Of a stretch of DNA of 64,000 nucleotides, positions 6,398 through 52,889 are shown one piece after another. Origin of the DNA: Bdellovibrionota bacterium. Lineage in GTDB: Bacteria > Bdellovibrionota > UBA2428. Positions within the stretch are counted from its first letter, which is position 1; every line of letters starts with the position of its first letter. Below the pieces are notes generated by a model. The model did not search any database and was not told the DNA's origin. It was given only the letters and a program-made list of their open reading frames with translations. The DNA lies in NCBI GenBank assembly GCA_041391385.1, contig JAWKOD010000006.1, positions 67,668-131,667 on the forward strand. Reading direction: 5' to 3'. The translations under genes and the position numbers were made by a program.

Positions 6398-6420
6398 ATC
6401 ATTCTCTGAATAATTAAAAA

Positions 6421-6454
6421 GCCGAACGCCTCGTTCTAAGTGAGGTGTTCGGCT
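6421..6454. terminator. Bidirectional stem-loop terminator between convergent genes
   Basis: GCCGAACGCCTC (6421-6432) pairs with GAGGTGTTCGGC (6443-6454), 11/12 with one G-U. It is flanked by AAAAA upstream and TTTT downstream. Confidence 0.6.
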
Positions 6455-6474
6455 TTTCTTTGTTATTGCTTTGC

Positions 6475-6777
6475 TTAAGTAGCAGGGGTTTCTTCAGCAG
6501 GAGCTTCAGTAGCTTCAGTTGTTTCAGGCGGCGCTTTTTTAGAAAGGCCTGTTTTAACAAGTTTTGCTTCGACAAGTATTTTTGCTTTATCAAAACCATT
6601 TACGTTTTTGCCGTCTTTAGTATGAACTTCAAAACGACCAGAACGTTTTGTGTAAATAACGTAGTCCTGGAATTTTTTTGTTTTAGCTTCAGTTGTAGTT
6701 GCAGTAGCGGCTGCTACTTTGGTTTTTTTAGGTGCTGCCTTTTTGGGCGCAGCTTTTTTTGCTTTTTTTTCAGCCAT
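6475..6777 (-). CDS. Small Lys/Ala-rich basic protein (histone H1-like nucleoid protein candidate)
   Basis: 100 aa. Basic head MAEKKAKKAAPKKAAPKKTK, a globular core YVIYTKRSGRFEVHTKDGKNVNGF, and an acidic T/E/P tail. Low complexity produces spurious ORFs in other frames. Confidence 0.55.
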   Translation of the reverse strand: MAEKKAKKAAPKKAAPKKTKVAAATATTTEAKTKKFQDYVIYTKRSGRFEVHTKDGKNVNGFDKAKILVEAKLVKTGLSKKAPPETTEATEAPAEETPAT

Positions 6778-6845
6778 AATGTTCTCCTTTAGTTGCTCTA
6801 AAATTCTACCTCAGAGGGCTGAGAGTGCAAGGAGCGACCACCGCG

Positions 6846-8126
6846 TTATCTTTTTATTTGAGAAACTTTCATTTGGGCGATGTAAAATTCCTTGGGCGCA
6901 AGGTAGTAAAGGCGTCCCCAGTTTTTCATAACCCCTGCAGCCTGTTTTGCCTCAGCACCCTTGCCCCAATAGAGATCAAGTCTTGAGGGGCCGCGTATGG
7001 CGCCTCCAGTGTCTTGGTCAAAAACAATTCGTTGTGTGTTCTGCCATGTCTGGGGTGTCTCGTCGTTCGTATGGGCGAATACAGGTTTGTCGAACTGGAG
7101 AAATGCCATGGCTCCTTTGGGAAAATAACGCGGGTCTGTGGCGATTGTTCTTCCGGGAATAACTTCGGTACCTAAAGAAGTTATGGATTGCGAAGAGATT
7201 TCTCGGAAGAACACATAACTTGGATTTTTATTGAGAAAACTTTGTTGTTCTTTGGGGTTAAGAGTTGCAAGGTAGCTTTCAATTTTTTGTAGGCTCATTT
7301 CTTCAAGAGGGATAACATCAGTCATGTACTTTCCAATAGGTACATAGGGGTGGCCATTTTGCGAGGCATATCCTACTTTTAGAAAAGTCCCATCTTCGAA
7401 CATCACCGTGCCTGATCCCTGAATTTGTAAAACAAATGCGTCTACCGGGTTCACGTAGCAAATTTCTAACTTTTCTCCTTTGAGTTTATCTTTGGAGTCG
7501 ATTTCTTCACGGTCATAGTAGGGGAGGATTTCGGCACTCGCTCCGTAAATGGAGCCTTTGCGAATGCGTCCGCGTAATATTCCACTGCCTGATTTTTGTT
7601 CTGAAAGTTTATCTTTTATGACTTCGAGAGCAGGGAATTTTTTGATGTAGTCGTTCATGCGAATTACGACCATGTCAGTGGGGACGGAATAAAGGGCCTG
7701 GGAGTATTCTTTTGTCGCTTTTCTTGAGCCCTTAATAATAGGGTCAAAATACGAGGTCATAAAAACTTCGCCCCATTCTTTTTTTCCAAATATTTCAAAA
7801 AAATCAAAATTTTCTTTTAAAAAGAGCATCCATATTTCTGGATTTGGATTGTCTTCTATAATTTTAAGAAAGTTTTTAAGCGCAAGAACGTAGTCGAAAG
7901 AGCTTACGTTGCGTTTTCCAAATTTTAAATTTGTATTGGATCTTTTTGAAAAATAATCGATATGATCGCGCAGCCCTTTGACTAAAGAGTCTTTGTTAAG
8001 ATCATCTGTAACGATTTCTGGTGTGGCACTTGGGCGCATAGCCTCGTCGGGGCTTTTGATTTCTCTATGAGCACAGGAAGCGATTAAAAAGGTGGCTAAT
8101 AGCACGCTGAAAAGGCATCTCATCAC
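6846..8126 (-). CDS. mltA: Membrane-bound lytic murein transglycosylase A
   Basis: 426 aa. Lipoprotein signal LIASC. VGYASQNGHPYVPIGKYM and DTGGAIRGPSRLDLYWGKG match MltA conserved blocks. Confidence 0.85.
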   Translation of the reverse strand: MMRCLFSVLLATFLIASCAHREIKSPDEAMRPSATPEIVTDDLNKDSLVKGLRDHIDYFSKRSNTNLKFGKRNVSSFDYVLALKNFLKIIEDNPNPEIWMLFLKENFDFFEIFGKKEWGEVFMTSYFDPIIKGSRKATKEYSQALYSVPTDMVVIRMNDYIKKFPALEVIKDKLSEQKSGSGILRGRIRKGSIYGASAEILPYYDREEIDSKDKLKGEKLEICYVNPVDAFVLQIQGSGTVMFEDGTFLKVGYASQNGHPYVPIGKYMTDVIPLEEMSLQKIESYLATLNPKEQQSFLNKNPSYVFFREISSQSITSLGTEVIPGRTIATDPRYFPKGAMAFLQFDKPVFAHTNDETPQTWQNTQRIVFDQDTGGAIRGPSRLDLYWGKGAEAKQAAGVMKNWGRLYYLAPKEFYIAQMKVSQIKR

Positions 8127-8278
8127 ATCAAATTCTCACAGATGAGCTACACAATGTAAAGAATCACATATTCACGCCTATTTTTTGAACATTGTAAAAA
8201 TTTGTATTCGCGAATTGCTAAGAAATCGGCCCATATTAACCTGTAAGGGGCTCTCAGAAGGCGAGAAAATAAGGGTAT

Positions 8279-8935
8279 ATGAGAACGCTTAAAGTATTTC
8301 TCTTTTTAGTCTTCACTCTCGTCGCATTAAACCCGCGATCTGGAGCCTATGGCTCAATGGAGCCAAGTATGAGGCTTGATTCTTTGCTCTGGCGCCAGCA
8401 GCGTATGGTTGATGGAGCGCTCAGTTTTATACAAGGTAAAAACTCTGAGCCTGTAGATGTTTCGACTCGTTCTCCGCGCCAACGTTGTTTAAGAGGTGTG
8501 AAAAAGGGCTTCTATTCAGCAGGTATTTTAAAGAAGTATCCAGCTTGGAAGATTGCTTCGCAGATGGATAAGATTTTAAAGAACCCCAAGCAAATTAAAC
8601 GTTTTCTAAAAAATGAATATAAGTTTGTACATCTTGATAAAGTGAAAACAGTTAAAGACGCGCCCGCATATTCGCTTCTCGTATATGAGGGTGCACCTTA
8701 TGGACACATTGAGTTTAAAGTTCCAGCTGATTACTTAGAGAGCAAGGGCTTTACCCACGCTCTGAGATCAAACGCAGGAACGAAGAGTGCCGTGGCCCTC
8801 GAGCAAATTCAGTATGTTTACGTGTCAGATTATATTGATGCTTTCCCTCGCAACCATCCCAGTAGTCGGGTTGCGAATAAATTCGCTCAGAACAAACGAC
8901 CCTTAAAAGCTGTTTTTCAATTACAAAAAATTTGA
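8279..8935 (+). CDS. Secreted hypothetical protein, possible papain-like (Cys/His) amidase
   Basis: 218 aa with a signal peptide. RCLRGVKKGFYSAGIL ... APYGHIEFK ... YVSDY has the order and spacing of Cys-His-Asp in CHAP/Tae-type amidases. The similarity is weak and motif-level only. Confidence 0.5.
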   Translation: MRTLKVFLFLVFTLVALNPRSGAYGSMEPSMRLDSLLWRQQRMVDGALSFIQGKNSEPVDVSTRSPRQRCLRGVKKGFYSAGILKKYPAWKIASQMDKILKNPKQIKRFLKNEYKFVHLDKVKTVKDAPAYSLLVYEGAPYGHIEFKVPADYLESKGFTHALRSNAGTKSAVALEQIQYVYVSDYIDAFPRNHPSSRVANKFAQNKRPLKAVFQLQKI

Positions 8936-8952
8936 TTGATATAAATCTATTT

Positions 8953-10086
8953 TTAGCGTGGCGGAGGCAATGCTTCTCTCAGTTTTGAAAGAGGGATGCC
9001 AAGTTTTTCCGCAGCTCTTTCGAGATCGGGGGGTGGTGGCCCTAGGGCTTCTCGGAGTTCCTCTGTTGAAACACCTAATTTTTGTGCAACAACATTCAAG
9101 TCGGGATGTCCCTCTCTGCCGCGGCGGCCTCTTTCGGGACGATCATACTGAACTCTGTTTCCTTGACCCCTATTTCGCTGAGGTCTTGGTCCACTAATTT
9201 TTCGAACATCTTCTTGTGTGTACGATCCGCGCAGGCACCCTATGGTGTAGGGGAAGTCCCAGGTAGCGTGATAGTGATAAAGCGTTGTTCTTTTGCCGTC
9301 CCAGTCAATTTCGTGTGTGTGGCCATGACATTCGTCCAAATCTTCGCTCGTGAGTTCTTTGCCGCCCACATCTTTGTGACCAAAAATTCCAAAACCGTCA
9401 ATCGCATAGCCCATAATCTCGGAGTGCCCATCAGCGCCAACCTTATCAGGAATACACGAACTAAGGTTGTGGTAGTGGTAGACGCCGCTTTCTTGCGGGT
9501 GTCCTTGGCAATTATCTTGAGTTTCGTGGGCTACAGCGTCTCTTCCTGGGGCATCGAGAGCATTAAACAAAACAACACCTGATTTGAGTACGCCCACTGC
9601 ACCTGGGGCACAAGAAGGAGACGTGTTGAGTTGTGGGTTTGCAGGAAGTTCTACACGAATGCTTTGTTCGCTAATGCTGTTGGGATTTCGGTCAAAGAGA
9701 TAAGCGTCGTCACTTCTTGAAATTGGAAAAGTTCCTGTGGGGTGATTGGGGTAGTCGTTCGAAGTAAAAACTCTTTTATCGCCCTTAAGTGAGATAGAAA
9801 ATTTATGTGGCCATGTAACTGAGCCATCCACAATTGCTTTTTGTGTAAAGTCGTATGTTTTTGAATTGAAATCTATCCAAGGTGCATTCCCTTCTGCGCC
9901 TCCTGCTTGAGGGTCTGTGTGGCAGGCCCAAATCCAAGTTTTTTTGGGAGAGGAGCTAAGGCGACCATCGCCAAGGGGAAGTTTCTTTCGGTCAACAGAA
10001 TGTGCAGATGCCGACAAAGGAACTGAGAGAGAAAAAATATAAAAACTCAATATAATTGCCTTGCTTATTTTCATGGCGTTACACAT
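8953..10086 (-). CDS. Secreted YHYH-domain protein with a C-terminal tandem helix-PPP repeat
   Basis: 377 aa with a signal peptide ending SASAHS. Two YHYH motifs (GVYHYHNLSSC, TLYHYHATWDFPY). The start could be ATG 10074 instead. Confidence 0.7.
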   Translation of the reverse strand: MCNAMKISKAIILSFYIFSLSVPLSASAHSVDRKKLPLGDGRLSSSPKKTWIWACHTDPQAGGAEGNAPWIDFNSKTYDFTQKAIVDGSVTWPHKFSISLKGDKRVFTSNDYPNHPTGTFPISRSDDAYLFDRNPNSISEQSIRVELPANPQLNTSPSCAPGAVGVLKSGVVLFNALDAPGRDAVAHETQDNCQGHPQESGVYHYHNLSSCIPDKVGADGHSEIMGYAIDGFGIFGHKDVGGKELTSEDLDECHGHTHEIDWDGKRTTLYHYHATWDFPYTIGCLRGSYTQEDVRKISGPRPQRNRGQGNRVQYDRPERGRRGREGHPDLNVVAQKLGVSTEELREALGPPPPDLERAAEKLGIPLSKLREALPPPR

Positions 10087-10361
10087 TATTTTAAGCGCTA
10101 CATATGATTTGTAAACTTCCTAACGATCAAGCTTATTGGCTATTCAAAATACAGAAGCTGCTTAAAAGCATAAGAAGTCGATGAGGGGTGCTTAGGATCC
10201 AGAAAAAGTCTCAGTGCAATAGAGGGCTAGTGCTGAGTTATTCGACTCTGAGAGGAATTATCCTTACTGAGCAAATAAATCATCAAAAGGCCTCTTAAGG
10301 GTCAATGCGTTAACCCGCGAGTGTGTTAAGATTGAAGCACTCCAAGTCAGGGGGCTTCAAG

Positions 10362-11336
10362 ATGACAATACTACTTAGCGGGAAAGATTTAATATTGGCC
10401 ACGAAAGACTTTGCTGTCGATACTCCTTGGCGAAGTTGGTGGAGTATTGGGAGCACCTTTTTTCTATTAGCCTTGTCGATTGCTGGAACAATTTGGAGCC
10501 CGCACATACTCCTACAGGGTTTTTGTAGTGTGCTCACGGGCCTACTTATCTTGCGATCTTTTGTTATTTATCACGACCATCAACATGCCTCGATACTGCC
10601 TCATTCTAAATTCGCAGAGTTCATGATGAGGGTGTACGGCATTCTCACTCTTAATCCATCGAGTGTCTGGAAGTCTTCACACAATTATCACCACAAGCAC
10701 AACTCTAAATTGCGGAGTGCTCATATCGGATCTTTTCCGATTATGACAAAAGAAAAGTTTCTCAATTCAACACCCGCACAACAGCGTCGTTATCTTTTTA
10801 TTCGGCACCCACTCACAATTTTGTTTGGGTACATTTTTACGTTTCTTTATGGAATGTGTTTGCAACCCTTTATGATGTATCCGCGCAAGCATTTTGATTG
10901 CCTCCTTGCAATTGTTGTTCACGTTTCGATTGGCGTGTTTTTAATGATGCAGTTTGGAGTGGGAACTTTGTTTTTGACTTTAATCATTCCCTGCTTTTTG
11001 GCATACGCAATGGGATCGTATTTGTTCTATGCCCAACACAACTTTCCCGGAGTTATTTTTTCAGACCATGCAGGCTGGACTTATGAAAAAGCCGCCATGC
11101 AGTCTTCTAGCTATTTAAAAACAGGAAAGCTTATGGCTTGGTTTAGCGGCAACATAGGCTATCACCATATTCATCACCTCAATGCGAAGGTGCCTTTTTA
11201 CCGATTGCCTGATCTTATGAAAAAAGTTCCAGAGTTGCAGAACCCGGTAACTACAACACTCAGTCCCGTGGATATCTATCGCTGCCTTCGTCTTAAAGTG
11301 TGGGACGTTGAAGCTCAACAGATGGTTGGCCTTTAG
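10362..11336 (+). CDS. Membrane fatty-acid desaturase
   Basis: Three His boxes: HDHQH, HNYHHKH and HHIHH. Four or more TM segments. ATG 10362 is preceded by AGGGGG (the track ORF starts at GTG 10323). Confidence 0.85.
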   Translation: MTILLSGKDLILATKDFAVDTPWRSWWSIGSTFFLLALSIAGTIWSPHILLQGFCSVLTGLLILRSFVIYHDHQHASILPHSKFAEFMMRVYGILTLNPSSVWKSSHNYHHKHNSKLRSAHIGSFPIMTKEKFLNSTPAQQRRYLFIRHPLTILFGYIFTFLYGMCLQPFMMYPRKHFDCLLAIVVHVSIGVFLMMQFGVGTLFLTLIIPCFLAYAMGSYLFYAQHNFPGVIFSDHAGWTYEKAAMQSSSYLKTGKLMAWFSGNIGYHHIHHLNAKVPFYRLPDLMKKVPELQNPVTTTLSPVDIYRCLRLKVWDVEAQQMVGL

Positions 11337-11342
11337 TCCTGC

Positions 11343-12155
11343 TTAAGGAGCTTTGGGTAATTCAGTTACGGGCTTGAAATTGAGAGTCTTTCCTTCTTCG
11401 TTTTTAATTTCATTTTCAGCTTCAATCTCAGCTTCTTCGCTTGGAAGAGTAAGGGGCATTCGATTTGCGGTTTGAAAAGGTATGAGCTTATCTGGGCTTA
11501 TAATCTCATATTTATTCATGTCATTGTAGTTTTTGAGCAGGATTTTATCGTCATTAATTTCGCCAATTACAAGAAAGATATCTGATTCATCTGAGTTATA
11601 TGTTTTGCGAGAAGCATATGAGCCCGTTGGGAAGTCTCCTTCGTAACTACGCTTAATTTTTTTTATTTTTCCAGTTGTCCAATTACAACCTACTCGATTG
11701 TCGAGGTTGCCACCTATAAATCTTAAACAGTGAGCAGAGAATCCGTCTGATCCGTAGTAAACACCGACCACACTTGCAGCGCTCGTTCTGCTTTCTACGT
11801 AAACGGGATCGCCAGAACGCAACTTGCTAAGGCCCTCTACGTAGGAATAGAGCGTCGTCGCAAATTCTACTTTATAAGGACCCAGAACCTTACCTTTATG
11901 TGAATCATCTATGTGTTCTAGAATAATGTGAGTCACTTCATCGGGATTTTTAGAGGAACGGACGAGTCCAAAGATTTTTCCAACATAAATATTCTTATCT
12001 GGCATTGTGACAACTGCGTAATTTCCTATCTTAAAGTTACTTCGAGCAAACTCGGGGATTTTAGAATCTGCTGTATGCCCAAGTCCGCTCACTGCAAGGG
12101 CGCAAAGAACTTTGAGGTAAACTTTTAAGTAAAATGAATAGCTTGTATTTTTCAT
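11343..12155 (-). CDS. Secreted hypothetical protein
   Basis: ATG 12155 gives a signal-like N-terminus, MKNTSYSFYLKVYLKVLCALAVSGLG. No recognisable domain. Confidence 0.55.
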   Translation of the reverse strand: MKNTSYSFYLKVYLKVLCALAVSGLGHTADSKIPEFARSNFKIGNYAVVTMPDKNIYVGKIFGLVRSSKNPDEVTHIILEHIDDSHKGKVLGPYKVEFATTLYSYVEGLSKLRSGDPVYVESRTSAASVVGVYYGSDGFSAHCLRFIGGNLDNRVGCNWTTGKIKKIKRSYEGDFPTGSYASRKTYNSDESDIFLVIGEINDDKILLKNYNDMNKYEIISPDKLIPFQTANRMPLTLPSEEAEIEAENEIKNEEGKTLNFKPVTELPKAP

Positions 12156-26157: not shown

Positions 26158-28686
26158 TTATGATTCTTCGATTTCTTTTAATTTGGCTTTAGCATCTTCG
26201 AGTGCCTGAAGGGTTCGAGGGATGTTTGCTTTTATTGATTCTGCTTTTCTACGTGCCTTCTTGGCATCGTCATTGTCAGCTATTGCTTCAAGGCGTTTGG
26301 CTTCAGCTTCTGCTTCCTCGGCATTTGCAACAGTTTTTTCATATTTTTTCTGAGCACTAGTTAAGGTTGCTTGTGCTTCTTCAAAGCTGATTTGTACAGG
26401 TGTTTCTTCAGTTGATTTTTCTTTTAAGAGTGATTCGCTAAAGGCATCGTGCTCTGCAATTGCTCTATTGAGTTCTTCTTTTGCTTTTGTGACTGCTTTT
26501 TTAGCCTCTCGTCCTGCTGTTATAGCTGCTTGGACTTCGGGGTCCCTTTTTTGCTCTTTTGTGGGGGCAAAGCTGAGTTGTTTTTCTTCAGATACTCTTT
26601 CTGCTTCTTCGAGTGCACGTTGAGCTTTATCTATAGCCGCTTTAAGTTCTCTAAGTTTTGGGGCTGCTGCTTGAAGCGTTTCTTCGATAGCACGTTGTCT
26701 GTTGAGCTCAGCTTCTTGAAGTTGTCTTTGTCTTTGCTCCCAGGTTGCATTTGTTTCTTTTAGGCTAGGAAGAAATACGTTGTCCGTGTCAACATATTCA
26801 GCGCCTACTAAGACAGTAAAAGAACTGGCGATTTGAGAATCGAATTCGGTGTGGCCAAGGCGCACTCCTTCGTTAATCATTTGGGCAACTACAATTTTAC
26901 TAAACTGAATACCTTCAAGGGTTGCAGAGAGTGGCTCCCCCGCTACGGGAGTTCTTTTGCCGTTTGCTGGGGGATAGAATACTGTCTCTGGACTCCATAC
27001 GTTGTCTAGTTTTACAATTAATCCACCCGCGATGAGTTCTCCTTTACCGTCGTAAAGTTCAATTGTGTCGAGAAGGTTGGCCTCGTAAAGGCGTTGCATG
27101 AGAATTACGTTATAGGGATCTAAAAATCTCGTAGAGTTTTCAGACTGACCTTTACGTTGCATGTTCCTAAGTTTCTCTAAGACGCCAAATAGGTTTTTGT
27201 TTTTTTCAAAATGGAAGCCTTCGGTGATTATTCCTGGTTTTACTAAATTTCCTTTGCGATCATAAACTCCGTTAAAAAGGTTATTGCCATCTTTGTAGAG
27301 GCCTGTTTCTTGAGCCTTTGCTAAGTTAATTGTTCCCCGAATTACAGGAAGGGTCCATCCACTCAGGTTAAACATAAAGCCATTTTTGTTTTCGCTCATA
27401 TGAACTGCTTCGGTGGGTACATTTTGTATAAGCGAAGGATCGAACTCTTGAACTCGCCCATCAAGGTCGATTGTGAAAAATTTATTTCCTTTGCTTATGG
27501 CGTCAGCGATGAGGGTAGTTGGATCTTTAGGAAGAATTCTTAAGGCATCCTCTAAGCTTAAGCTTTTGTTGATAGCAGAAAGTTTCTTGGAGTCTGAAAT
27601 GAAAAATAAAGGTCTGTTGATTATCCCGTTTGAGGGCTTTTCCGTTACAGCGTTCATTTTCTCAACATGTGCCATTGCTTCTTCAATGCTGCTAACAGGT
27701 TTAAGTCCCGTCTCCCACATAAGAACGCCCGATTGAATGGCGTTGACTTCGTTTTCTGGTGTGGGCTTGGGCTTGTGCCCAAAAAATCTACGAAGACCAA
27801 TTCCTTGCTGGCGTGCGGTTTCAATAAACTCTTCAGGAGAGGTTGCTTTGATGCTTGGTTCTTTGTTGTTCAGGATATTTGTTTGCAGGAAGCGACTGAT
27901 TTCTTCGTAGGCAATTCCACGGGGTGTTCGTTCAAAAACGTTCGCATCTGCAAAGGGCATGTCGAGATAGTGAATCGTTGGGAGTGAGGGGTCAGCATCC
28001 GAAGCTATTCTTGCATTTTTAGAAAAGTCGTAAAGGTTCTGCTTTAGGCCTGAGGGATAAGTGCCGTCATGCGTTCCAGTTAAAATAAAAGTGGGTACGT
28101 TAATGGGTGTGCTGTTCCAATCGGGGAGTGAGTTCGTGCTGCTAAGTGGATTTTCCAAAACTAAAGAAGAGACAAGGTCGGGTCTTCTTTTAGCGAGTAC
28201 AATGGCACCTTCAGCTAAGTTTCCTTTTGCATAAATGACAAGGGGTCTTTGGTCGGGTGCTTGTGCACGTGTAGATAAAAGAATTGTTTCCATCCATGTC
28301 GCAACATCTTCTGCGCTTTTGTGTGGAGTGGTAGGAGAAAAAGCTTCTGCTCCCATGACAATGTGTTCAGTGTTCGAAGATTCGCCAGTGAGTTTTTCAA
28401 CTTTACTTTTTGCTGGGGCAAAATCGTTAATCTTTGAGCCAAAAGAATCAAAAATTACAGCATGTAGGGGAGCGTTGCTGGGAAATTGATTTTGACTTGG
28501 CTTGATGTGAAGTGCTTGAAGTTTGTTGTTGCGAAGGAGCTCTATTTTTTTAGACTTCTTAAAACTTAGATAGGAATATGCCTTCGCAGTTAATGCCAAC
28601 AAGCAACCTGCAGAGGCAGCGGGTGCAAGGAAAAGCTGAGTTGTGAAAAGAAACAAAAACAGGATTTTTAAAATGTTTGTTTTCAT
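26158..28686 (-). CDS. Exported multidomain protein: alpha/beta-hydrolase-like, Aat (Leu/Phe-tRNA-protein transferase)-like, and a 200-aa coiled coil
   Basis: ATG 28686 gives the signal peptide MKTNILKILFLFLFTTQLFLAPAASA (the track ORF starts at GTG 28749). Aat-like blocks: FHFEKNKNLFGVLEKL, LLDTIELYDGKGELIAGGL, FSKIVVAQMINEGVRLGHTEFDSQ. The tail is E/K/A/Q heptads. Confidence 0.65.
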   Translation of the reverse strand: MKTNILKILFLFLFTTQLFLAPAASAGCLLALTAKAYSYLSFKKSKKIELLRNNKLQALHIKPSQNQFPSNAPLHAVIFDSFGSKINDFAPAKSKVEKLTGESSNTEHIVMGAEAFSPTTPHKSAEDVATWMETILLSTRAQAPDQRPLVIYAKGNLAEGAIVLAKRRPDLVSSLVLENPLSSTNSLPDWNSTPINVPTFILTGTHDGTYPSGLKQNLYDFSKNARIASDADPSLPTIHYLDMPFADANVFERTPRGIAYEEISRFLQTNILNNKEPSIKATSPEEFIETARQQGIGLRRFFGHKPKPTPENEVNAIQSGVLMWETGLKPVSSIEEAMAHVEKMNAVTEKPSNGIINRPLFFISDSKKLSAINKSLSLEDALRILPKDPTTLIADAISKGNKFFTIDLDGRVQEFDPSLIQNVPTEAVHMSENKNGFMFNLSGWTLPVIRGTINLAKAQETGLYKDGNNLFNGVYDRKGNLVKPGIITEGFHFEKNKNLFGVLEKLRNMQRKGQSENSTRFLDPYNVILMQRLYEANLLDTIELYDGKGELIAGGLIVKLDNVWSPETVFYPPANGKRTPVAGEPLSATLEGIQFSKIVVAQMINEGVRLGHTEFDSQIASSFTVLVGAEYVDTDNVFLPSLKETNATWEQRQRQLQEAELNRQRAIEETLQAAAPKLRELKAAIDKAQRALEEAERVSEEKQLSFAPTKEQKRDPEVQAAITAGREAKKAVTKAKEELNRAIAEHDAFSESLLKEKSTEETPVQISFEEAQATLTSAQKKYEKTVANAEEAEAEAKRLEAIADNDDAKKARRKAESIKANIPRTLQALEDAKAKLKEIEES

Positions 28687-28960
28687 TTCTTGATTAATTA
28701 AGGGCGCCAAAGCTGAATTGTTCTTCGTAAGCATCTTGTTGTTGCTCACTTTTATTTACAAAGATTCCAACGGCGTTTCGACGATAAAGAAAGACGACAA
28801 AAAACATCCCTATTGAGTTGATTTTTAGAGCCCAAATGTTGCACCATTGTTGCGATGCACAATAACAGTTTTTCATCCTTAAAGTCAATGCAAGTTCTCA
28901 AATTTCTTAGCTTAAAATATCTTACATGCTCTACGCGTCATATTGGGATATGATCGAGGC

Positions 28961-29800
28961 ATGTCCAAGCATGTGCTTCTTATTCAGTGTCGAGATGAGA
29001 TGGGCCTAGTCCACAAGGTCACAGGTGCCTTGCTCAAGCGCAACCTAAACGTTGTGGAGAATGCTGAGACTGTAGACACTGTTACGACTAGTTTTTTTAT
29101 GCGTACAGAGTTTCTGGGGGATATCTCAAGTGACGAACTTTTAGACGAATTAAAGTCTTTGCTTCCACGCAATGCAGAGGTGCATTTGCGCCTTCAAAAT
29201 CCAAAGAAATTATTGATTCTTGCAACTCGAGAATCTCATTGTTTGGGAGATTTGCTCTTGAGGCATCATTCTGGCGAGCTAAATGCAAAAATTTTGGGAG
29301 TCGTCAGTCAGTACGATTCTTTATCCGATTTGGCAGAGCGCTTTTCAATTCCCTATAAGCATGTTCCTGTCGATCCTAGCTTGGACCGAGCAGCACATGA
29401 GGAAAAGCTTCTACAATGTTGTAACGAATTTGAAGCAGATTACCTAATTTTGGCAAAATACATGCGCGTGTTGAGCTCAGATTTTACTCAGCGCTTTCCT
29501 GAGAGAATGATAAACATTCATCATTCTTTTTTGCCCGCTTTTGTCGGAGCTAGTCCTTATAAGCAAGCATATGAACGCGGAGTTAAAATCATTGGAGCCA
29601 CGGCTCATTTTGTAACACAAGAGCTTGATGAGGGACCAATAATTACTCAATCTGTAATTCCTGTGAAAAATAGTGAATCTCCTGCTCAGATGGCAAAGGC
29701 CGGAAGAGAAATTGAGAAGCTCGTTTTGGCACGTGCAATAAACCTTGTTTTAGAGGACCGCGTAATGGTTCACGGCAGACGCACTATAGTTTTTGAGTAG
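28961..29800 (+). CDS. purU: Formyltetrahydrofolate deformylase
   Basis: 279 aa from ATG 28961. N-terminal ACT domain followed by a formyltransferase core, HHSFLPAFVGASPYKQAYERGVKIIGATAHFVTQELDEGPII. Confidence 0.9.
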   Translation: MSKHVLLIQCRDEMGLVHKVTGALLKRNLNVVENAETVDTVTTSFFMRTEFLGDISSDELLDELKSLLPRNAEVHLRLQNPKKLLILATRESHCLGDLLLRHHSGELNAKILGVVSQYDSLSDLAERFSIPYKHVPVDPSLDRAAHEEKLLQCCNEFEADYLILAKYMRVLSSDFTQRFPERMINIHHSFLPAFVGASPYKQAYERGVKIIGATAHFVTQELDEGPIITQSVIPVKNSESPAQMAKAGREIEKLVLARAINLVLEDRVMVHGRRTIVFE

Positions 29801-29842
29801 TGTTTTCGAAGAGTCCGATGGAATTACAATTCGAATCTTCAA

Positions 29843-32530
29843 TTAGGGTTCAATGTTCTGAATGATGTTATTGCCCAAGAGCGGGATAACTTGCCCATTA
29901 ACACGTTCAAGTTCGACTTTTTCTGCACCAGAATTAAAAGCAAACTCCATAGCTTCAAATAGTGCTTTTTGAAGCCCTTGGTTCATCGCAGCGCTAGGAG
30001 CTGGTGTTGCAGCGGTTGTTGAAGGCGTATTGAAGTCTACTAGCGCATCTATGCTCCAGCGAGTGCCCTTGTGCAGGAGAATGGCTCCAGCAATCAGATT
30101 TCCGTCTTCACCAAATACTTCAATGGAATGAGCGTTTCTTTCATGAAACAGAGTCTGTGGGAGTAACCAACTATGAACATCGTAAAGTGGAAGTCCCTCG
30201 CTGTTAAGATAGTTTTTAGCTTGGTTCATAAGATGCCAAAAATGAGTGTCGTTTTTTACGCTCAGTTGATTGTTTGAGAGAGCTTGTTGGTATTCGGGGT
30301 AGTTCGCTTTGTCTTCAGCGCGAAAGAGGCTTATTGTACTTTTTCTAATCCACGAGTGAAACTTTAAAGATGCGGGACTCAGGGGATCTTCTCTAAAAGT
30401 GAGAGTGCTTTCTTCGGGCTCTCCCATTATGGCAAGGAGTTCTTCAGCGTTTATATTTCTTGCCTGGCCGTTTTCAATAATAAATATATTTCCTGTGGGA
30501 TCTTTGCCTGCGCTGTGAGCTTTGCTCTCAGTGCTAATAATATTCTTTACCATATCTTCAGCATTTTTTTTACTGGCAAGGGGTTGGGCTATTTGTTCTC
30601 TGATCGCATCAGGTCTTATGTATTCAATGCTTCCTTTGTTGCTGACGATATACAATTTTCCCTTTTCGGCAGCGTCAAGAATTTCAGTATATTTTCCGAA
30701 GTAAACTGGGTCAAAACGCTGTAATGGAAAGGGGCGTATGGCGCTTTCGATTTCAGATTGGCTAGCTGTGTGAGCATTCATTCCTTCGGGCAAGAAGGAA
30801 ATGTCTCCGCGGCTGCCTGAACGAGCAAAGTTTATGAGAAGATCCTCTGAGGCTTGGGGTTCGTTGATGGTGCTTTTGTCCTGTCTGCTGTGCATGAGGC
30901 CATATTCTCTTTTGGCTTTGTCGCTGAGCTTGCTCCAAGTTCGGTATATCTCAAAGTTACTGGGATAGATGGGTAAGTAGAAAGTTTTGCCTTTCTGGAA
31001 TTGACGTTCAACGAGTCTGCCTTCTTGGGCTAGGGAAGATATTTCTTGGTGGTTCATCACATCGTTCGCTACGAAGTCTTCAGGTGTAAGTACTTTTTCG
31101 CTACCGTCAGCTGCTTTGAGGCGAATTCTTCCGTGTTTTGCATGTTCAGTGAAGTTAGGTATTTTTGCATTCTTCCGATAAGTTGTGAATCCAGGTACTC
31201 CGCTTGCTCTTCTGAATGATCTTGCAAGTTGATCCGATGCGATAATGTAAACGGCTGTATTTGCATGCGGGGAGTTCTGGTTGTGTTCTTCCGCAGCTTT
31301 TAAACTTTCAACGACAAAGACTTCTTGAGCTTCAAATCGAAAGCCAGCTTCGTAGCCTTCTTTGAGGGTTTTGGGAGTGACGGGTATTTCGCTTCCAAGA
31401 TTTAATTTATTGCCTGTTATTTTCCCGGAATTGCTGGCGTTAATAAAGGTGTTTGCATCTATGCTTGAGTCGGGGGCAGGGATTCCAAGAAATTTTTCTC
31501 GAATATAATTTCTTAGAATAGGTAAGGCTTGGTCGTTGGGGTTGTAGCCATCCGCAAATGCAAAAGTGTCGTGATGGGCTCTAAGGAAATCGTAAATGAC
31601 AAGGTTGCCGTCTGAGTCCCTTGCAAGATTACTGGTGAAGGTTCTTTCGCTTATGGGGACTTGTCGGTCGGCTTCACCTTCAAAGAAAGTGTATCTGGTG
31701 CGGTTTTCTTTGAAAAGATTCACGGTCCACGCTTTGGAATTATGAAGCATCTTCATAATCCAGCTAAAAGCACCCTCGTTAACTCCACTTCCGTTTGTTT
31801 CAAGATCTGCGATAGCGCCCTTCTCGGCATCTATGAGTCGTTGTTTGTCGCCCGGTTCTATGCCCGTAGTTGTTGGGCTCATGGCAATTATTTCGTCAAT
31901 GAGGTTCGGGTCAATCTCAGAAGCTTTAATTGCAAAGTCTGCTCCGCTACTTCGAGTAAAGACAACCAGTTTGGCATCGGGATCCATTTGCGAGCGAATT
32001 TTTCTAAGATAATTAACTGTCCATTCCGCAACTAGTTCGGGTGATTGGAAGTTGTCGCGATTTGGTCCTGCTTCGGCTCCGGGAAGTGCGGGTGCTTCTG
32101 CGTAAATTTTTGAAGCTTCATCCTTTGACATAACTCCTGCATCAACGAGTTCTTTTAAGATTGCTGTGAGAGAGTGGGGGCCGCTATTACCGCCACCGTT
32201 ACCGTGAATAGTTACAAAAACAACTTTTGCTTCGGAGAGAGTAGCTTGTCTTCTGGGAAGGATCCTGTAGGTGCCAAATTCTGGTACAAGCTCGGCTGTC
32301 ATTGAAGGGGAATCGGTTTTTCCCTCTTGAAAACGCTCGACTTCTACGACGAGTCTTTGCATGAAGGGGTCTGCTTCAGCAGCGGCTAAATTTTCGTAGT
32401 GTCCATGCTCGACGAGTGCTTGAAGGCATCCCGTTGCATTTTCTGCTATTGCACGCGGAGATACTCCGATGCATAAAAATAAAAGAACTAAAATAAGTGA
32501 TTTTCTTCTCAGCAATTGCACTCGGCTCAC
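29843..32530 (-). CDS. Exported multidomain protein: alpha/beta hydrolase, middle region, and an Aat-like C-terminal domain (paralog of 26158..28686)
   Basis: 895 aa with signal peptide ...CIGVSPRAIA/EN. Hydrolase elements: VVFVTIHGNGG, FTRSSGAD, GEADRQVP, RAHHD. Aat-like blocks: LSVKNDTHFWHLMNQA, NAHSIEVFGEDGNLIAGA, GLQKALFEAMEFAFNSGAEKVELERV. Confidence 0.65.
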   Translation of the reverse strand: MSRVQLLRRKSLILVLLFLCIGVSPRAIAENATGCLQALVEHGHYENLAAAEADPFMQRLVVEVERFQEGKTDSPSMTAELVPEFGTYRILPRRQATLSEAKVVFVTIHGNGGGNSGPHSLTAILKELVDAGVMSKDEASKIYAEAPALPGAEAGPNRDNFQSPELVAEWTVNYLRKIRSQMDPDAKLVVFTRSSGADFAIKASEIDPNLIDEIIAMSPTTTGIEPGDKQRLIDAEKGAIADLETNGSGVNEGAFSWIMKMLHNSKAWTVNLFKENRTRYTFFEGEADRQVPISERTFTSNLARDSDGNLVIYDFLRAHHDTFAFADGYNPNDQALPILRNYIREKFLGIPAPDSSIDANTFINASNSGKITGNKLNLGSEIPVTPKTLKEGYEAGFRFEAQEVFVVESLKAAEEHNQNSPHANTAVYIIASDQLARSFRRASGVPGFTTYRKNAKIPNFTEHAKHGRIRLKAADGSEKVLTPEDFVANDVMNHQEISSLAQEGRLVERQFQKGKTFYLPIYPSNFEIYRTWSKLSDKAKREYGLMHSRQDKSTINEPQASEDLLINFARSGSRGDISFLPEGMNAHTASQSEIESAIRPFPLQRFDPVYFGKYTEILDAAEKGKLYIVSNKGSIEYIRPDAIREQIAQPLASKKNAEDMVKNIISTESKAHSAGKDPTGNIFIIENGQARNINAEELLAIMGEPEESTLTFREDPLSPASLKFHSWIRKSTISLFRAEDKANYPEYQQALSNNQLSVKNDTHFWHLMNQAKNYLNSEGLPLYDVHSWLLPQTLFHERNAHSIEVFGEDGNLIAGAILLHKGTRWSIDALVDFNTPSTTAATPAPSAAMNQGLQKALFEAMEFAFNSGAEKVELERVNGQVIPLLGNNIIQNIEP

Positions 32531-32821
32531 CGTTTATGATTTACAAATGTGTAGGTGTGTTTTGTTGAAATTCTCTGGTCTGTTTTTGAATATGTTTCTT
32601 CTCTAAAAGTTGCACCATAACGCGGGGCAGTATTATGCCTAAGCCCCTGATTTGTCAAAGCTTAAATTATCTTTACATCTTGTGATTTTGCTCCAAAGCC
32701 GTATTGCTTTGGAATAGAGGCCGCGATTTTCTTTTGGCTTAACTTCAAATTAAAGAAATACTGATGCTATCTTATTCGAATTCTTTAGGTCTCATGTAAG
32801 AATAAGTGAAGTGGGTGCTAT

Positions 32822-33309: not shown

Positions 33310-33385
33310 TGGAGCGGGAGACGAGGCTCGAACTCGCTACCCTCAGCTTGGAAGGCTGATGCTCTACCAAATGAGCTACTCCCGC
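33310..33385 (-). tRNA. tRNA-Gly (anticodon UCC), CCA encoded
   Basis: The reverse complement is GCGGGAG-TA-GCTC-ATTTGGTA-GAGC-A-TCAGC-CTTCCAA-GCTGA-GGGTA-GCGAG-TTCGAGC-CTCGT-CTCCCGC-T-CCA. Confidence 0.95.
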
Positions 33386-33923: not shown

Positions 33924-35114
33924 ATGTCAAAGGAAAAATTTAACCGCGATAAACCACATGTGAACATCGGAACAATTGGTCACGTCGACCACGGTAAGAC
34001 TACTCTTACTGCAGCGATCACAAAAACTCTAGCGTCTAAGGGTCAAGCTGAATTCAAAGCTTATGACCAAATCGACAAAGCTCCAGAGGAAAAAGAGCGT
34101 GGTATTACTATCAATACTTCGCACGTGGAATACGCAACAGCTACACGTCACTACGCACACGTAGATTGCCCAGGTCACGCCGATTATGTGAAAAACATGA
34201 TCACAGGTGCTGCGCAAATGGACGGTGGTATTCTTGTAGTTTCTGCTTCTGATGGTCCTATGCCTCAAACACGTGAACACATTCTCTTGGCTCGCCAAGT
34301 AGGTGTTCCAGCTCTTGTTGTTTTCATGAACAAGTGTGACATGGTTGATGACGCAGAACTTTTAGATCTTGTAGAAATGGAAGTTCGTGAACTTCTTTCT
34401 AAGTACGAATTCCCTGGAGACGATATTCCTATCATCCGTGGATCTGCACTTAAGGCTCTTGAAGGCGACACAGGTGAATTGGGAATTCCTGCAATTGAAA
34501 AATTGATGGATGCAGTTGATGCTTCAATTCCTCTTCCTGCACGTCCAAAAGATAAGCCTTTCTTGATGCCTGTAGAGGACGTGTTCTCGATTTCTGGTCG
34601 CGGAACTGTTGTTACAGGTCGCGTAGAGCGCGGAATTATCAAGGTTGGTGAAGAGATTGAAATTATCGGATTACGTCCTACTGTTAAGTCTACAGTTACT
34701 GGCGTTGAGATGTTTAGAAAACTTCTCGATCAAGGTGAAGCAGGCGATAACATTGGAGCTCTTCTTCGTGGAACGAAGAAAGAAGATGTTGAGCGCGGTC
34801 AAGTTTTGGCTAAGCCCGGCAGCGTAACTCCTCACAAAAAGTTCAAAGGTGAAGTCTACATTCTTAAAAAAGAAGAAGGTGGCCGTCACACAGCTTTCTT
34901 GAACGGGTACCGTCCTCAGTTTTACTTCAGAACAACTGACGTAACTGGAAACGTTACACTTCCTGAAGGAACTGAAATGGTTATGCCGGGTGACCGCGTA
35001 ACTATTGACGTAGAGCTCATCACTCCAATCGCTATGGAAAAAGAACTCCGTTTCGCTATTCGCGAAGGTGGTCGTACCGTAGGTGCTGGTGTTGTCTCTG
35101 CAATTGTTGAATAA
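33924..35114 (+). CDS. tuf: Elongation factor Tu
   Basis: 396 aa. [17 protein letters not shown] and NKCD G-motifs. AAGGAGG Shine-Dalgarno lies upstream. Confidence 0.98.
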
Positions 35115-49892: not shown

Positions 49893-51994
49893 ATGGCGCT
49901 TAAAAAAGGATCCTTAGAATCATTTAGAAATATTGGAATTATTGCGCATATTGATGCGGGAAAAACGACCACAACTGAACGTATTCTTTTTTACACAGGA
50001 TCATCGCATAAAATTGGTGAGGTTCATGATGGCGAAGCTGTCATGGATTGGATGGAGCAAGAGCGCGAGCGGGGAATTACAATTACGGCCGCTGCAACGA
50101 CTTGTTATTGGAAAGATTATCGCATCAACATTATCGACACTCCTGGGCATGTAGATTTTACAATCGAAGTGGAGCGATCTCTGCGAGTTCTAGACGGAGC
50201 TGTGGGAGTGTTTTGCGCCGTCGGAGGTGTTCAACCCCAAAGTGAAACAGTGTGGAGACAAGCGAATAAATACAAAGTTCCTCGCATAGCGTTTGTAAAC
50301 AAAATGGATCGCACTGGAGCTAACTTTAACAGAGTTCTTGATCAAATGAAGTCGAAGTTAGCGGCTAAACCTCTTGCCTTAGTTATGCCAGTAGGAGAGG
50401 GCGAAGATTTTGAGGGATTCCTTGATCTTTTAAACGCTAAAAAAATAACTTGGTCAAAAGACGATGTGGATGGGAAAGGTTTTCTATCTGAAGAAATTCC
50501 TTCTGATATGAATGATGATTTTCAGGCTGCTCGATCTGCGATGATCGAAACTCTCGCAGATTGTGATGATCAAATCATGGAAAAATACTTGGCAGAAGAA
50601 TCCATCAGTGAAGTTGAATTGCGTGATGCCGTTAGAAGGTCCTCTTTGTCGCTTAAGGCAACACCTGTTATTTGCGGATCTGCTTTTAAAAACAAAGGCG
50701 TTCAGTTTTTATTGGACGCCATCTGTGATTTTTTACCGAGTCCCGCTGAAGTGCCCCCCATGGAAGGCTTTGACCCCGCTCACGAAGATAAAAAGTTGCT
50801 TCGAATAGCCAACAAGGATGAAGCCTTCTCTGCTCTTGCCTTTAAAATTGCACATGATCCCTTTGTCGGCACCATTACTTATACACGCATTTATTCTGGA
50901 TCTATTAAAGCGAATCAAAGTTGCTTGAATGTTGTGAAGGACAAGTCGGAGCGTATTCAACGTATTTTAATGATGCATGCCAATAAGCGCAGCGAACTTC
51001 AAGAGGCGAGTGCGGGAGAAATTGTAGCTATTGTTGGATTCCGTCATACTCAAACGGGTGAGTCATTGGCTGACTCCAAAAATCCGATTCTCTTTGAAAA
51101 AATGACTTTTCCAGAGCCGGTGATTTCAATTGCAATTGAACCAAAGTCTCAAGCGGATCAAGAAAAGCTTTTTGAAAGTTTAAGAAAAATGAGTTGGGAA
51201 GATCCAACATTTAGAGTGCGCACCAATGAAGAAACAGGCCAGGTGTTAATTTCTGGAATGGGGGAGCTTCATTTAGAAATTGTTGTAGATCGCTTACTGC
51301 GAGAGCACAAGGTTCCCGCAAACGTAGGTAAACCTCAGGTGAGTTACCGTGAGAGTATATCTGCGGAATCTAAGGCATCTAATACATGCGAGAGAGATGT
51401 TGGTGGGAAAAAGCAATTTGGCCAAATTACTTTGCGAGTTTATGCACGTGAGCGCGGTGCAGGAAACGAAGTCATTGATTCCATTAAAAATTCGCAGTTG
51501 CCTAAAGTTATTAAAGAACAAATATTAAAAAATGTTCCACTTCTTCTTCAAAGCGGACCCATTGCGGGATTTCCAGTAGTTGATGTTGGTGTGGAGCTAT
51601 TGGGAGCAGAGTATAGAGAAAATGAGTCCTTGGATTTAGCGTATTTAACTGCTCTTTCAATGGCCTTGCAGGAGGCATTCAAAAAGCACAGCCGAAACTT
51701 TTAGAGCCCGTAATGAAGCTAGAGGTAACTTGTCCCAGTGATTTTGTTGGAGACGTTGTGTCTGACTTGGGTATTCGACGTGGTCGCATTCAAGAGATGG
51801 AGTCTCAAGAAGATGTGGGTCTTCAAGTTGTTAAAGCTGAAGTGCCATTGGCCAGTGTGTTTGGATATTCTACAGATCTACGTTCTCGAACTCAGGGGCG
51901 TGGAACTTTTGTCTTAGAGTTTGCACAGTATGATTCTATGCCGCCCAATGTTGAGAAGGCTATTTTAGAGAAGTTTACGGGTGTATCCTATTAA
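49893..51994 (+). pseudogene. fusA: Elongation factor G, with the frame broken at 51681-51686 (AAAAAG) as given
   Basis: ORF 49893..51704 has [24 protein letters not shown] and domains I-IV. The -1 frame from 51683 reads [25 protein letters not shown]... to 51994 (domain V). The joined length of ~700 aa is full size. Confidence 0.9.
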
Positions 51995-52808
51995 AAGAAG
52001 AAGAGTATTGGCTCTCTTTGGAGCCGTATTTTTTACACTTGGACTCGCATTAATAATGATACAAGAACGTCTTATTTTTTTTCCTGAACAAATTTCTGAG
52101 CAATATACTTTTAAATTTAAAAATTTCGACGAGATTTTTTTTGATTTTGAAGGTCAAAAAATGAACTCTTTGCTTTTTCCAGAAGACTCTTCAGATATTG
52201 TTCTACTTTATTTGCATGGAAACGCAGGAAGTTTAGTGGGTTGGGGAGACGTCGCCTCTAAGTTGCGAGATGAGTTGTCCGTAGGTGTTTGGATTGTTGA
52301 CTATCCAGGCTATGGGAAGAGTGAGGGCTCAATTCAATCCGAAAGGCAGCTCCTGGCTTTTACCGAGCATTTTTTATCAGTTGCAAGAAAAGCTTTCCCT
52401 CAAAAGAACTTTGTTATGTACGGACGCTCAATTGGAAGTGGGCCAGCCGCGTGGGTAGCAGCTAAGTATAAACTTCCTTTAATATTAGAAACTCCCTATG
52501 CGAGCTTTTCTAAATTAGCTTCTGAACACGCACCTTGGTTTCCTTCTTTTTTGAAACGCTATACTTTTGAGACACTTAAGTGGCTTAAGAATTACAAGCA
52601 ACCTTTGTTGCTGATTCACGGCAATCAAGATGAGGTGATTCCAGTTGAGCATTCTCATTTGCTCAAGGAGGCGTTGCCTAAGTCAAACTTTAAAGAAATT
52701 GTTGGCGGAACACATAACAACCTATCGGACTTTAAAGACTATTGGTCAAGTTTAAGGGTTTTTGTGAATAAATTAACCCCTGTAGATTTACGAGAGCTTT
52801 CTCTCTAG
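51981..52808 (+). CDS. Alpha/beta hydrolase (membrane-anchored)
   Basis: 275 aa. GTG start overlapping the fusA end. N-terminal TM segment, HGNAG oxyanion region, YGRSIGSG nucleophile elbow, HGNQDEVIP and GGTHNN. Confidence 0.75.
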
Positions 52809-52889
52809 TTAGTGGGCTTAATTCCACTTAAAGATTTGTAATTACCACGAAATAAGTCGAATTATGGCCTATTTTCCTCGCAGGTGCAT

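Follow-up and report, generated by a model that had tools for sequence, protein, structure and literature searches.

A pair of putatively exported hydrolase-Aat fusion proteins with complementary active-site changes in a Bdellovibrionota bacterium

We analysed a window of 64,000 nucleotides from a Bdellovibrionota bacterium (assembly GCA_041391385.1, contig JAWKOD010000006.1, positions 67,668 to 131,667 of the forward strand) and focused on two of its minus-strand genes, here called A and B, between which purU sits on the opposite strand. The product of gene A consists, in order, of a signal peptide, a short cysteine-containing tag (Cys tag), an intact alpha/beta-hydrolase domain and a domain with the fold of Leu/Phe-tRNA-protein transferase (Aat), in which the active-site motif is altered. 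The product of gene B follows the same order, with a signal peptide, the Cys tag, a hydrolase domain that appears to be dead, an Aat-like fold with the D-x-Q motif and, at the end, a coiled-coil tail. The best explanation overall seems to be that A and B are paired exported enzymes of a predatory lineage, which would perform prey-directed aminoacyl transfer. Taken as a whole, this explanation stands in our judgement evenly balanced between right and wrong; we are nearly certain of the part that concerns architecture and homology, while the step in which aminoacyl-tRNA (aa-tRNA) would be used inside the prey is doubtful.

The C-terminal modules of A and B are related to Leu/Phe-tRNA-protein transferase

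A first-pass annotation, made by reading the sequence without database searches, had proposed that both proteins carry an Aat-like module of the PF03588 type, and this relationship was recovered by profile and structure comparison. PF03588 was the sole Pfam match of each isolated C-terminal domain (B, 18.7 bits, E 0.0013; A, 13.9 bits, E 0.038), and with the full-length proteins B scored 14.3 bits and A gave no match. Three of the five B orthologues also match PF03588 (best E 1.1e-5), the same family is the recorded match for the relatives P0013 and P0017, and JGI and PGAP already label several relatives 'Leu/Phe-tRNA-protein transferase'. When a family profile of 31 sequences, with no A-family member among them, was compared with the PDB, it found E. 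coli Aat (2Z3K, 2CXA, 2DPS) with E 1.1e-16 and 64 bits over Aat residues 58-226. The C-terminal domain of A aligned with this profile in hhalign (97.6%, E 3.7e-12). Since a profile of the A family only gave no direct match to Aat in the PDB, the Aat assignment of A is transitive through the family.

The AlphaFold2 (AF2) model of B residues 270-660, based on the family alignment, reached a predicted local distance difference test score (pLDDT) of 89.7 and a predicted template modelling score (pTM) of 0.87. In a Foldseek comparison of this core with the PDB, structures of E. coli Aat took the first nine places (E 2e-8 to 7e-7, probability 1.0), with alignments of 222-238 columns that take in about 222 of 231 residues. 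Because these matches span Aat, the core of B is the whole Aat fold with insertions and not a C-terminal piece of it. The next matches were FemX, L-PGS/MprF and ATE1, which are aa-tRNA-dependent, and generic GNATs came only thereafter. In the model of A, the catalytic lobe follows the secondary-structure order of the Aat fold with pLDDT 82-98; between the N-terminal and the catalytic lobe lies a long helical insertion (residues ~446-715) modelled at low confidence (pLDDT <50).

The E. coli Aat sequence used for comparison was identical to PDB 2DPS, and the three Aat-like blocks that the first-pass annotation had picked out in each protein all fall in the register of the hidden Markov model (HMM) alignment with E. 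coli Aat. The Aat N-terminal motif corresponds to the family 'G-RGFLG..P.T.E....G...W' region. A pairing by MAFFT of the A segment DPLSPASLKFHSW with GDLSPARLLMAY of Aat was rejected, since HMM and family alignments place this segment on Aat W58-W59. The small domain profiles, compared in hhalign with E. coli Aat as a single sequence, gave alignments too weak for use (B, E 0.0063; A, E 0.096 and in the wrong register). Full-length family profiles of A or B returned from the PDB either coiled-coil noise at E>=0.013 or no match; IpaB/NEMO-type matches of the full-length B profile (E>=0.013) were rejected as noise of this kind, the IpaB match lying inside the Ala/Glu/Lys tail of B.

Active-site motifs of the Aat-like module are kept in B and altered in A

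In the HMM alignment, the active-site residues of Aat find the following equivalents in B: W444 for W59, N496 for N92, F521 for W111, E543 for E133, E567 for E156, K597 for K167, D616 for D186 and Q618 for Q188. These positions, D616 and Q618 included, are invariant in the five B orthologues, and the core of B also retains the W49 equivalent. Across the family alignment, Trp stands at the W49 position in 29 of 29 sequences, Asn at N92 and Glu at E133 in 31 of 31 each, and Tyr or Phe at W111 in 30/31; Asp or Glu at E156, Lys or Arg at K167 and Asp at D186 are each found in 28/31. This conservation holds across sequences that are only ~20% identical. In the Aat-puromycin structure, W49 and W111 stack on the donor adenosine, and E156 of Aat reads the basic acceptor side chain. 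The helix matching Aat residues 67-91, a putative tRNA-binding surface, is basic in the short relatives described below and in B, and not in A. A proton relay through Gln188 and Asp186 is a published proposal for the L/F-transferase, for which an alternative mechanism has also been suggested (bioRxiv 10.1101/2022.07.20.500667).

The catalytic lobe of A carries K-V-E-L-E-R-V where Aat has L-I-D-C-Q. Within the A family, V-E-[LV]-[ED]-R is invariant where B has F-D-S-Q, and no D-x-Q is present, so that the contrast between FDSQ in B and ELE in A, already read from the sequence, is confirmed. The register of A is uncertain by ~2 residues: the spacing in the model favours E873 as the equivalent of D186 and E/D875 as that of Q188, and MAFFT and hhalign each differ from it. 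Clear equivalents of W49 and W111 are also missing. As A has neither D-x-Q, nor these two residues, nor the basic helix, we read its Aat-like site as changed in sequence.

The hydrolase module appears intact in A and degenerate in B

Pfam and NCBIfam gave no match to the N-terminal region of A or B, even at E<=5. The AF2 model of mature A (pLDDT 77.6 overall and 85-97 at residues 70-430) shows the canonical order of strands and helices of an alpha/beta hydrolase, with HG (109-110) after beta3, Ser194 between beta5 and a helix, Asp288 after beta7 and His320 after beta8. In Foldseek this domain had 1,220 PDB matches at E<=1e-3, all of them hydrolases; the best were monoglyceride lipase Rv0183 (6eic, E 5e-9), carboxyl- and feruloyl-esterases and a thioesterase. 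The HG, Ser (TRSSG), Asp and His motifs are kept in the A family and in two longer relatives, P0010 and P0012.

The corresponding domain of B aligned with those of A, P0010 and P0012 over 227 columns (hhalign 97.9%, E 4.5e-13). In all five B orthologues, FDSFG replaces HG, Gly (Gly155 in B) replaces Ser, and Ala, Val or Glu replaces His; the cap insert is missing and Asp is kept. Judged from these residues, the hydrolase domain of B is clearly a catalytically dead one. The alpha/beta-hydrolase assignment of the first-pass annotation is thus upheld by the structure model for A and by homology for B, and the motifs it had listed (FTRSSGAD, GEADRQVP and RAHHD in A, YAKGNLAEG in B) are present. 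Its notion of reciprocal degeneration survives in part: it agrees with what is seen in the hydrolase of B, whereas in A the Aat-like site is altered and only possibly inactive.

Export signals and the single-cysteine tag

The N-terminus of A has an n-region with four Lys/Arg residues, RRK ahead of the hydrophobic core LILVLLFLCIGV, and A-I-A before E30; in B, ILFLFLFTTQLFLA forms the core and A-S-A precedes G27. By hand reading, both thus end in AxA, as had been claimed, and both have the features of a Sec/signal peptidase I substrate, namely positive charges in the n-region, a hydrophobic core spanning >=10 residues and small side chains at -3/-1. Nearly all full-length relatives share these features: a signal-like N-terminus was found in essentially every full-length family member (~35 independent members from different sources). 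At least one Lys or Arg precedes the core in 31 of the 35 hydrophobic N-termini of the family, and small residues stand at -3/-1, so that the orientation favours export of the C-terminal part. Export of A and B is strongly indicated by these features.

The motif G-C-L-x-A-L comes directly after the signal peptide in both A and B, and its Cys is the only one of the mature protein in A, B and most relatives. Sharing of this motif, on which the first reading had remarked, is real: the long open reading frames (ORFs) of the window, 18,482 amino acids (aa) in total, contain 'GC..AL' just 3 times, once each in A, B and the product of the gene that lies downstream of B. To our knowledge, no sorting or modification signal described so far corresponds to the tag. 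A lipoprotein reading, with processing by signal peptidase II at the tag Cys, was rejected, as no lipobox [LVI][ASTVI][GAS]C lies directly after the core. In A and most relatives, polar or charged residues precede the Cys, which stands 5-25 residues past the core (ENATGC, AFAKGTC, EHEKC and others); only B (ASAGC) fits a relaxed lipobox pattern by manual reading, and its orthologues do not.

A and B are paralogues within a rare family

BLASTP of A against B gave two short colinear high-scoring segment pairs (E 7e-5 and 1e-4). The two proteins are 15-20% identical, compared with ~50% for orthologues between genomes, and both globular modules align, the N-terminal domains at the hhalign value given above and the C-terminal ones at 87% (E 3.6e-6). 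This similarity goes far beyond chance and establishes A and B as paralogues, in agreement with the first-pass annotation.

Close homologues are few: among 5.8 billion sequences we found four orthologues of B and two of A, in addition to a truncated A orthologue in locus L002. A lies beside B in each of the three readable genomes. An exhaustive HMMER search with a joint domain profile against 1.84 billion representatives returned just 33 proteins at E<=1e-3. Most of them are 380-450 aa long and have the same plan without the hydrolase domain, that is, a signal peptide, the Cys tag, the 'G-RGFLG..P.T.E....G...W...EEA..H' region and the Aat-like lobe. Seen against these relatives, the fusion in A and B is no isolated oddity but one branch within a larger family of exported Aat-like proteins. 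All named relatives, and the five loci found among 185,579 species genomes, belong to Bdellovibrionales, Bdellovibrionaceae, Pseudobdellovibrionaceae or Bacteriovoracaceae. Putatively exported Aat homologues are thus a rare family of ~33 clusters, of which every named or genome-assigned member comes from Bdellovibrionota. Searches of the literature turned up no report of an Aat homologue that is exported.

Two relatives, P0010 (1027 aa) and P0012 (1107 aa), combine an intact triad and D-x-Q in a single polypeptide. The P0010 locus is syntenic, with the order prolyl-tRNA synthetase (ProRS), a 1270-aa protein, P0010, further genes and photolyase, and in it P0010 occupies the place of A and B together. 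The simplest history would be a duplication followed by complementary loss. Such a history usually indicates that neither function has become dispensable, and in many cases that the two copies cooperate.

Two further observations concern these relatives. In locus L011 (positions 5659-12019), 5 bp separate P0010 from the next gene, whose ATP-grasp product resembles an L-amino-acid ligase, and the gene of an OPT-family oligopeptide transporter comes after it; the window shows no peptide-related neighbourhood of this kind. P0011 (887 aa), from the soil metagenome bin BH10BDE1, contains two tandem short exported Aat-like modules in one polypeptide.

Gene boundaries and features of the locus

Coordinates of the features are collected in Table 1. 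Both minus-strand ORFs that the first-pass annotation had reported exist, and one of its lengths has to be corrected: the interval 26158-28686 encodes 842 aa, whereas an 863-aa product starts at 28749. Gene B has three possible starts, ATG 28686 (842 aa, the NCBI choice), ATG 28734 (858 aa) and GTG 28749 (863 aa, the longest ORF). A start at ATG 28734 (MLTKN...) would be at least as likely as the annotated one, because the n-regions of the orthologues are longer (MFTQK...) and because of the spacing of the conserved upstream motif.

Table 1. Positions of genes A and B, their parts, upstream elements and downstream neighbours (window coordinates unless a locus is named)
Feature	Position	Strand	Evidence and remarks
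Gene A (NCBI R3A80_11530)	29843..32530	minus	895 aa, GTG start; ORF and orthologues P0007/P0008 (~51% identity)
A signal peptide (aa 1-29, ...SPRAIA before E)	32444..32530	minus	n-, h- and c-regions read from sequence
A Cys tag TGCLQAL (C35, sole Cys of mature A)	32414..32434	minus	sequence
A alpha/beta-hydrolase domain (aa ~75-350)	31481..32308	minus	AF2 and Foldseek; HG motif (IHGNGGG), Ser194, Asp288, His320
A Aat-like N-terminal lobe (aa ~370-442)	31205..31423	minus	aligns with family 'GIG-RGF...W...EEA..H' region
A Aat-like catalytic lobe (aa 716-895)	29846..30385	minus	PF03588 (E 0.038), hhalign, model
Gene B (NCBI R3A80_11515)	26158..28686	minus	842 aa as annotated; ORF and orthologues P0002-P0005 (43-51% identity)
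B signal peptide (aa 1-26, ...APAASA before G)	28609..28686	minus	read from sequence
B Cys tag GCLLALT (C28, sole Cys in 842 aa)	28588..28608	minus	sequence
B putative pseudo-hydrolase domain (aa ~70-275)	27862..28479	minus	hhalign against A/P0010/P0012 domains
B Aat-like core (aa 285-650)	26737..27834	minus	AF2 model, Foldseek, family profile
B coiled-coil tail, Ala/Glu/Lys-rich (aa 651-842)	26161..26736	minus	alignment; B family only
Promoter-proximal element ATGGTGCAACTTTT upstream of A	32605..32618	minus	just after sigma-70-like TTGACA-18-AATACT
Promoter-proximal element ATGGTGCAACATTT upstream of B	28834..28847	minus	just after TTGACT-18-TATTGT
Conserved promoter regions, window	32605-32690, 28834-28910	minus
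Conserved promoter regions, L001	6030-6107, 9830-9907
Conserved promoter region, L002	2010-2089
1227-aa signal-peptide protein, candidate partner	22348..26031	minus	126 bp downstream of B
269-aa signal-peptide protein	21432..22241	minus	downstream of the 1227-aa gene; C-terminal tag ...HSCRAGLLGGGDLL (21435-21476)

A shared promoter region precedes A and B

The same order of elements was found upstream of both genes: first AATTTAAGC, then TTGAC(A/T) and, after a spacer of ~18 nt, a -10-like hexamer, which precedes ATGGTGCA(A/G)C. This last element lies 75-107 nt ahead of the start codons. The combination TTGAC...ATGGTGCAAC recurs ahead of each of the five A and B genes that were compared: the two of the window, their two counterparts in L001 and, in L002, the orthologue of B. 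It is kept although the encoded proteins are only ~50% identical from genome to genome, and A and B only 15-20% identical to each other. Because the same conserved promoter-proximal element lies upstream of both, A and B are probably co-regulated, and the conserved upstream region suggests a common regulator or leader element. Rfam contained no known RNA matching the leaders of A and B genes. A sigma-54 promoter was considered and rejected, as GG-N10-GC spacing is missing and the motif lies just downstream of sigma-70-like hexamers. A tRNA-Gly gene (anticodon TCC; 33310-33385, minus strand) is situated between the upstream region of A and tuf (EF-Tu, 33924-35114).

Large and small tagged proteins are encoded next to A and B

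The 1227-aa protein encoded downstream of B has Gly-rich hydrophobic segments and the C-terminus SGCKAALGK, with the tag at 22351-22377; it gave no match in the PDB, Pfam or NCBIfam. Its orthologue at the same position in L001 is 71% identical, a higher conservation than that of A or B (~50%), and a large protein without a Pfam match recurs at this position in every related locus. Large proteins (1,230-1,310 aa) with no Pfam match also adjoin the Aat-like genes in L001, L002, L004 and L011, which makes five loci with the window, and in these four loci all of them end in [GR]-C-x-x-x-[LF]. Downstream of P0012 lies a large ORF that runs off the contig end, its C-terminus being unread. By BLASTP and phmmer, the 1227-aa protein of the window had no similarity to the equally placed proteins of 1244, 1308 and 1270 aa; those of L002 and L004 are homologous to each other (E 8e-41). 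Only some of these large neighbours are detectably related to one another, and the features that all of them share are limited to position, size and C-terminal tag. We infer that the 1227-aa protein is a functional partner of A and B. The 'third' genes of the loci (269, 466, 489 and 501 aa) had no detectable mutual relation.

Several small exported neighbours bear the tag at one or the other end. Among 35 long ORFs of the window, C-x-x-x-[LIFV] within the last 20 residues was found in two, the 1227-aa and 269-aa proteins. In the form [GS]-C-x-x-x-[LFIV], the tag marks a run of adjacent exported proteins of the window, being N-terminal in A, B and a 217-aa ORF (tag region 20748-20900) and C-terminal in the 1227-aa and 269-aa ORFs. 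It is present as well on a 417-aa ORF at 52884 (tag region 52884-53000), and most carriers have no other Cys in the mature protein. Directly upstream of the 417-aa ORF lies a plus-strand ORF of 275 aa (51981-52808) that is alpha/beta-hydrolase-like (HGNAGS, GRSIGSG) and has an N-terminal hydrophobic segment, so that the window encodes a hydrolase and a tagged protein side by side for a second time.

Proposed function and its alternatives

We propose that A and B would act together, outside the cytoplasm of the producer, as prey-directed enzymes. The Aat module of B would move an ester-activated aminoacyl group onto a primary amine, the esterase module of A would cleave an ester substrate, and the adjacent large Cys-tagged protein would be their functional partner. 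By homology the donor would be aa-tRNA, and the enzyme would then have to work within the prey cytoplasm or on contents leaking from the prey; the conserved donor-site residues point to a donor of the aminoacyl-adenosine type and hence suggest aa-tRNA and action in the prey cytoplasm. Several points weigh against this explanation. Since aa-tRNA is absent from the periplasm, the donor taken from homology is its weakest link, and we know of no route into the prey cytoplasm. The predatory lifestyle of this metagenome-assembled genome (MAG) is assumed from the phylum, and that A and B work as a pair we infer from their adjacency and shared promoter. Both proteins score under the PF03588 gathering cut-off of 22.7 bits, and the signal peptides were judged by eye, with hydropathy scored across 44 sequences. 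At the Q188 position the family alignment has Gln in 9 and Gly in 20 of 31 members, and the reaction may therefore not be the one that Aat catalyses. Moreover, a family-specific invariant basic loop, R-x-Q-x-R-K-G-Q...R, has no counterpart in Aat and could bind a different phosphate-bearing donor.

A serious, if unlikely, rival is a donor in the envelope that is an ester other than aa-tRNA; it is kept in play by where the proteins are found, by their fusion to an esterase, by the basic loop and by the frequency of Gly at the Q188 position. An extracytoplasmic transferase in the periplasm of predator or prey would then draw on aminoacyl-phosphatidylglycerol, on lipid esters, or on an acyl-enzyme or thioester passed on by the fused esterase, and its acceptors would be envelope amines such as peptidoglycan stem peptides, phosphatidylethanolamine (PE) head groups or protein N-termini. 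Export signals throughout the family fit such a donor, as do the fusion to a lipase/esterase/thioesterase-like domain and the presence of L-PGS (MprF synthase domain; aminoacyl-glycerol esters) among the structural matches (4v36, E 7e-4), and the loop and the Gly hint at a changed substrate. However, the equivalents of W49 and W111, which in Aat stack on the donor adenosine, are kept family-wide, the basic helix matching the putative tRNA-binding surface of Aat is also conserved, most family members have no hydrolase domain, and we are aware of no transferase of the Aat, Fem or MprF type that acts in the periplasm. The pseudo-enzyme hydrolase of B, the missing D-x-Q of A, the long coiled-coil tail of B and the single conserved Cys common to neighbouring proteins would also suit a reading in which both folds serve as scaffold, or bind peptides or ligands, within a secreted complex held by disulfides, with no transferase chemistry. 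This we regard as improbable, in view of catalytic and donor-site positions strongly conserved at ~20% identity, of the Ser-Asp-His triad intact in A, P0010 and P0012, and of a loss that was complementary rather than joint, which argues that both activities are still needed. As for export itself, the ambiguous start of B (28686, 28734 or 28749) and signal peptides judged by eye leave room for the view that the hydrophobic N-termini are start-codon artefacts or anchors and that A and B are ordinary cytoplasmic Aat paralogues. It is very improbable: the hydrophobic segment is retained whichever start codon of B is taken, the feature recurs in ~35 independent members with the n-regions and -3/-1 residues described above, and E. 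coli Aat has no N-terminal segment of this kind.

A more elaborate form of the proposed prey-directed transfer gives the Cys tag a role in delivery. The tag, placed at the mature N-terminus of every exported Aat-like enzyme and at the far C-terminus of the adjacent ~1,230-aa protein with its hydrophobic segments, would serve for docking or hand-over between the enzymes and this large protein, which would insert into the prey inner membrane as a translocator; disulfide-tethered enzymes would be carried across as in AB toxins, freed by reduction in the prey cytoplasm, and would use prey aa-tRNA after release. Protein N-termini would thereby be aminoacylated to become N-degrons for prey ClpS/ClpAP, or translation would be blocked. 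We regard this scheme as a long shot. As a variant, the tag Cys itself might accept or carry the acyl group in an esterase/transferase relay, which would amount to a lipobox-independent protein acylation system.

Comparison with known systems

Aat, Fem, MprF and ATE are cytoplasmic users of aa-tRNA. With E. coli Aat (EC 2.3.2.6; PF03588; 2DPT, 2Z3K, 2CXA), the family shares the two-lobed GNAT-related fold and the equivalents of W49, N92, W111, E133, E156, K167 and D186, as well as Q188 in B. It differs in several respects: Aat is a cytoplasmic monomer of 234 aa without a signal peptide, whereas the family is predicted to be exported and is 2-4 times larger, with insertions in the N-lobe, the basic loop R-x-Q-x-R-K-G-Q and the N-terminal single-Cys tag. 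A and B differ further by the fused alpha/beta-hydrolase domain, and B by its coiled-coil tail. In place of Q188, most family members have Gly, and A has E-x-E/D.

The next-best matches of the B core, FemX (1NE9), MprF/L-PGS (4V36) and ATE1/Bpt (7TIF, 7WG4) at E 3e-5 to 1e-2, all transfer an aminoacyl ester to an amine or hydroxyl acceptor. They match more weakly than Aat, act on the cytoplasmic side and have neither a hydrolase fusion nor a Sec signal. The N-terminal domain of A resembles hydrolases of the type of Rv0183 (6EIC), human MGLL and curacin thioesterase (3QIT), with E 5e-9 to 1e-7 and template modelling scores (TM-scores, by target) of 0.5-0.7; it has their capped topology and HG, Ser, Asp and His in the canonical places. 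However, A is only ~11-17% identical to them, has T-R-S-S-G instead of G-x-S-x-G and no Pfam match, and the copy in B has neither the cap nor the catalytic residues except Asp. The Legionella effector VipF (7WX7), among the weaker structural matches, offers a precedent, as an acyltransferase-fold enzyme with a cytoplasmic co-substrate that is delivered into a target cell; unlike the family described here, it uses acetyl-CoA and a type IV secretion signal, and has no Aat homology, no Sec signal peptide and no hydrolase fusion.

Significance

New in this analysis are the conserved promoter element common to A and B and the adjoining large protein with no Pfam match and a C-terminal Cys tag. The shared tag and the linked giant proteins point to a so far undescribed machinery for sorting or assembly. 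A and B offer a clean case of subfunctionalisation, with putative complementary loss of two active sites and with single-gene relatives, in which both sites are intact, as outgroup. These results are relevant to the fields of N-degrons, aa-tRNA transferases and bacterial predation. A conserved exported branch of the Aat family, confined to bacteria of predatory lineage, implies either aa-tRNA-dependent modification as a weapon in another cell or a new extracytoplasmic acyl donor, and either outcome would widen the known roles of non-ribosomal peptide-bond-forming transferases. For Bdellovibrio-like predators, A and B are candidate effectors of the poorly understood takeover of the prey cytoplasm.

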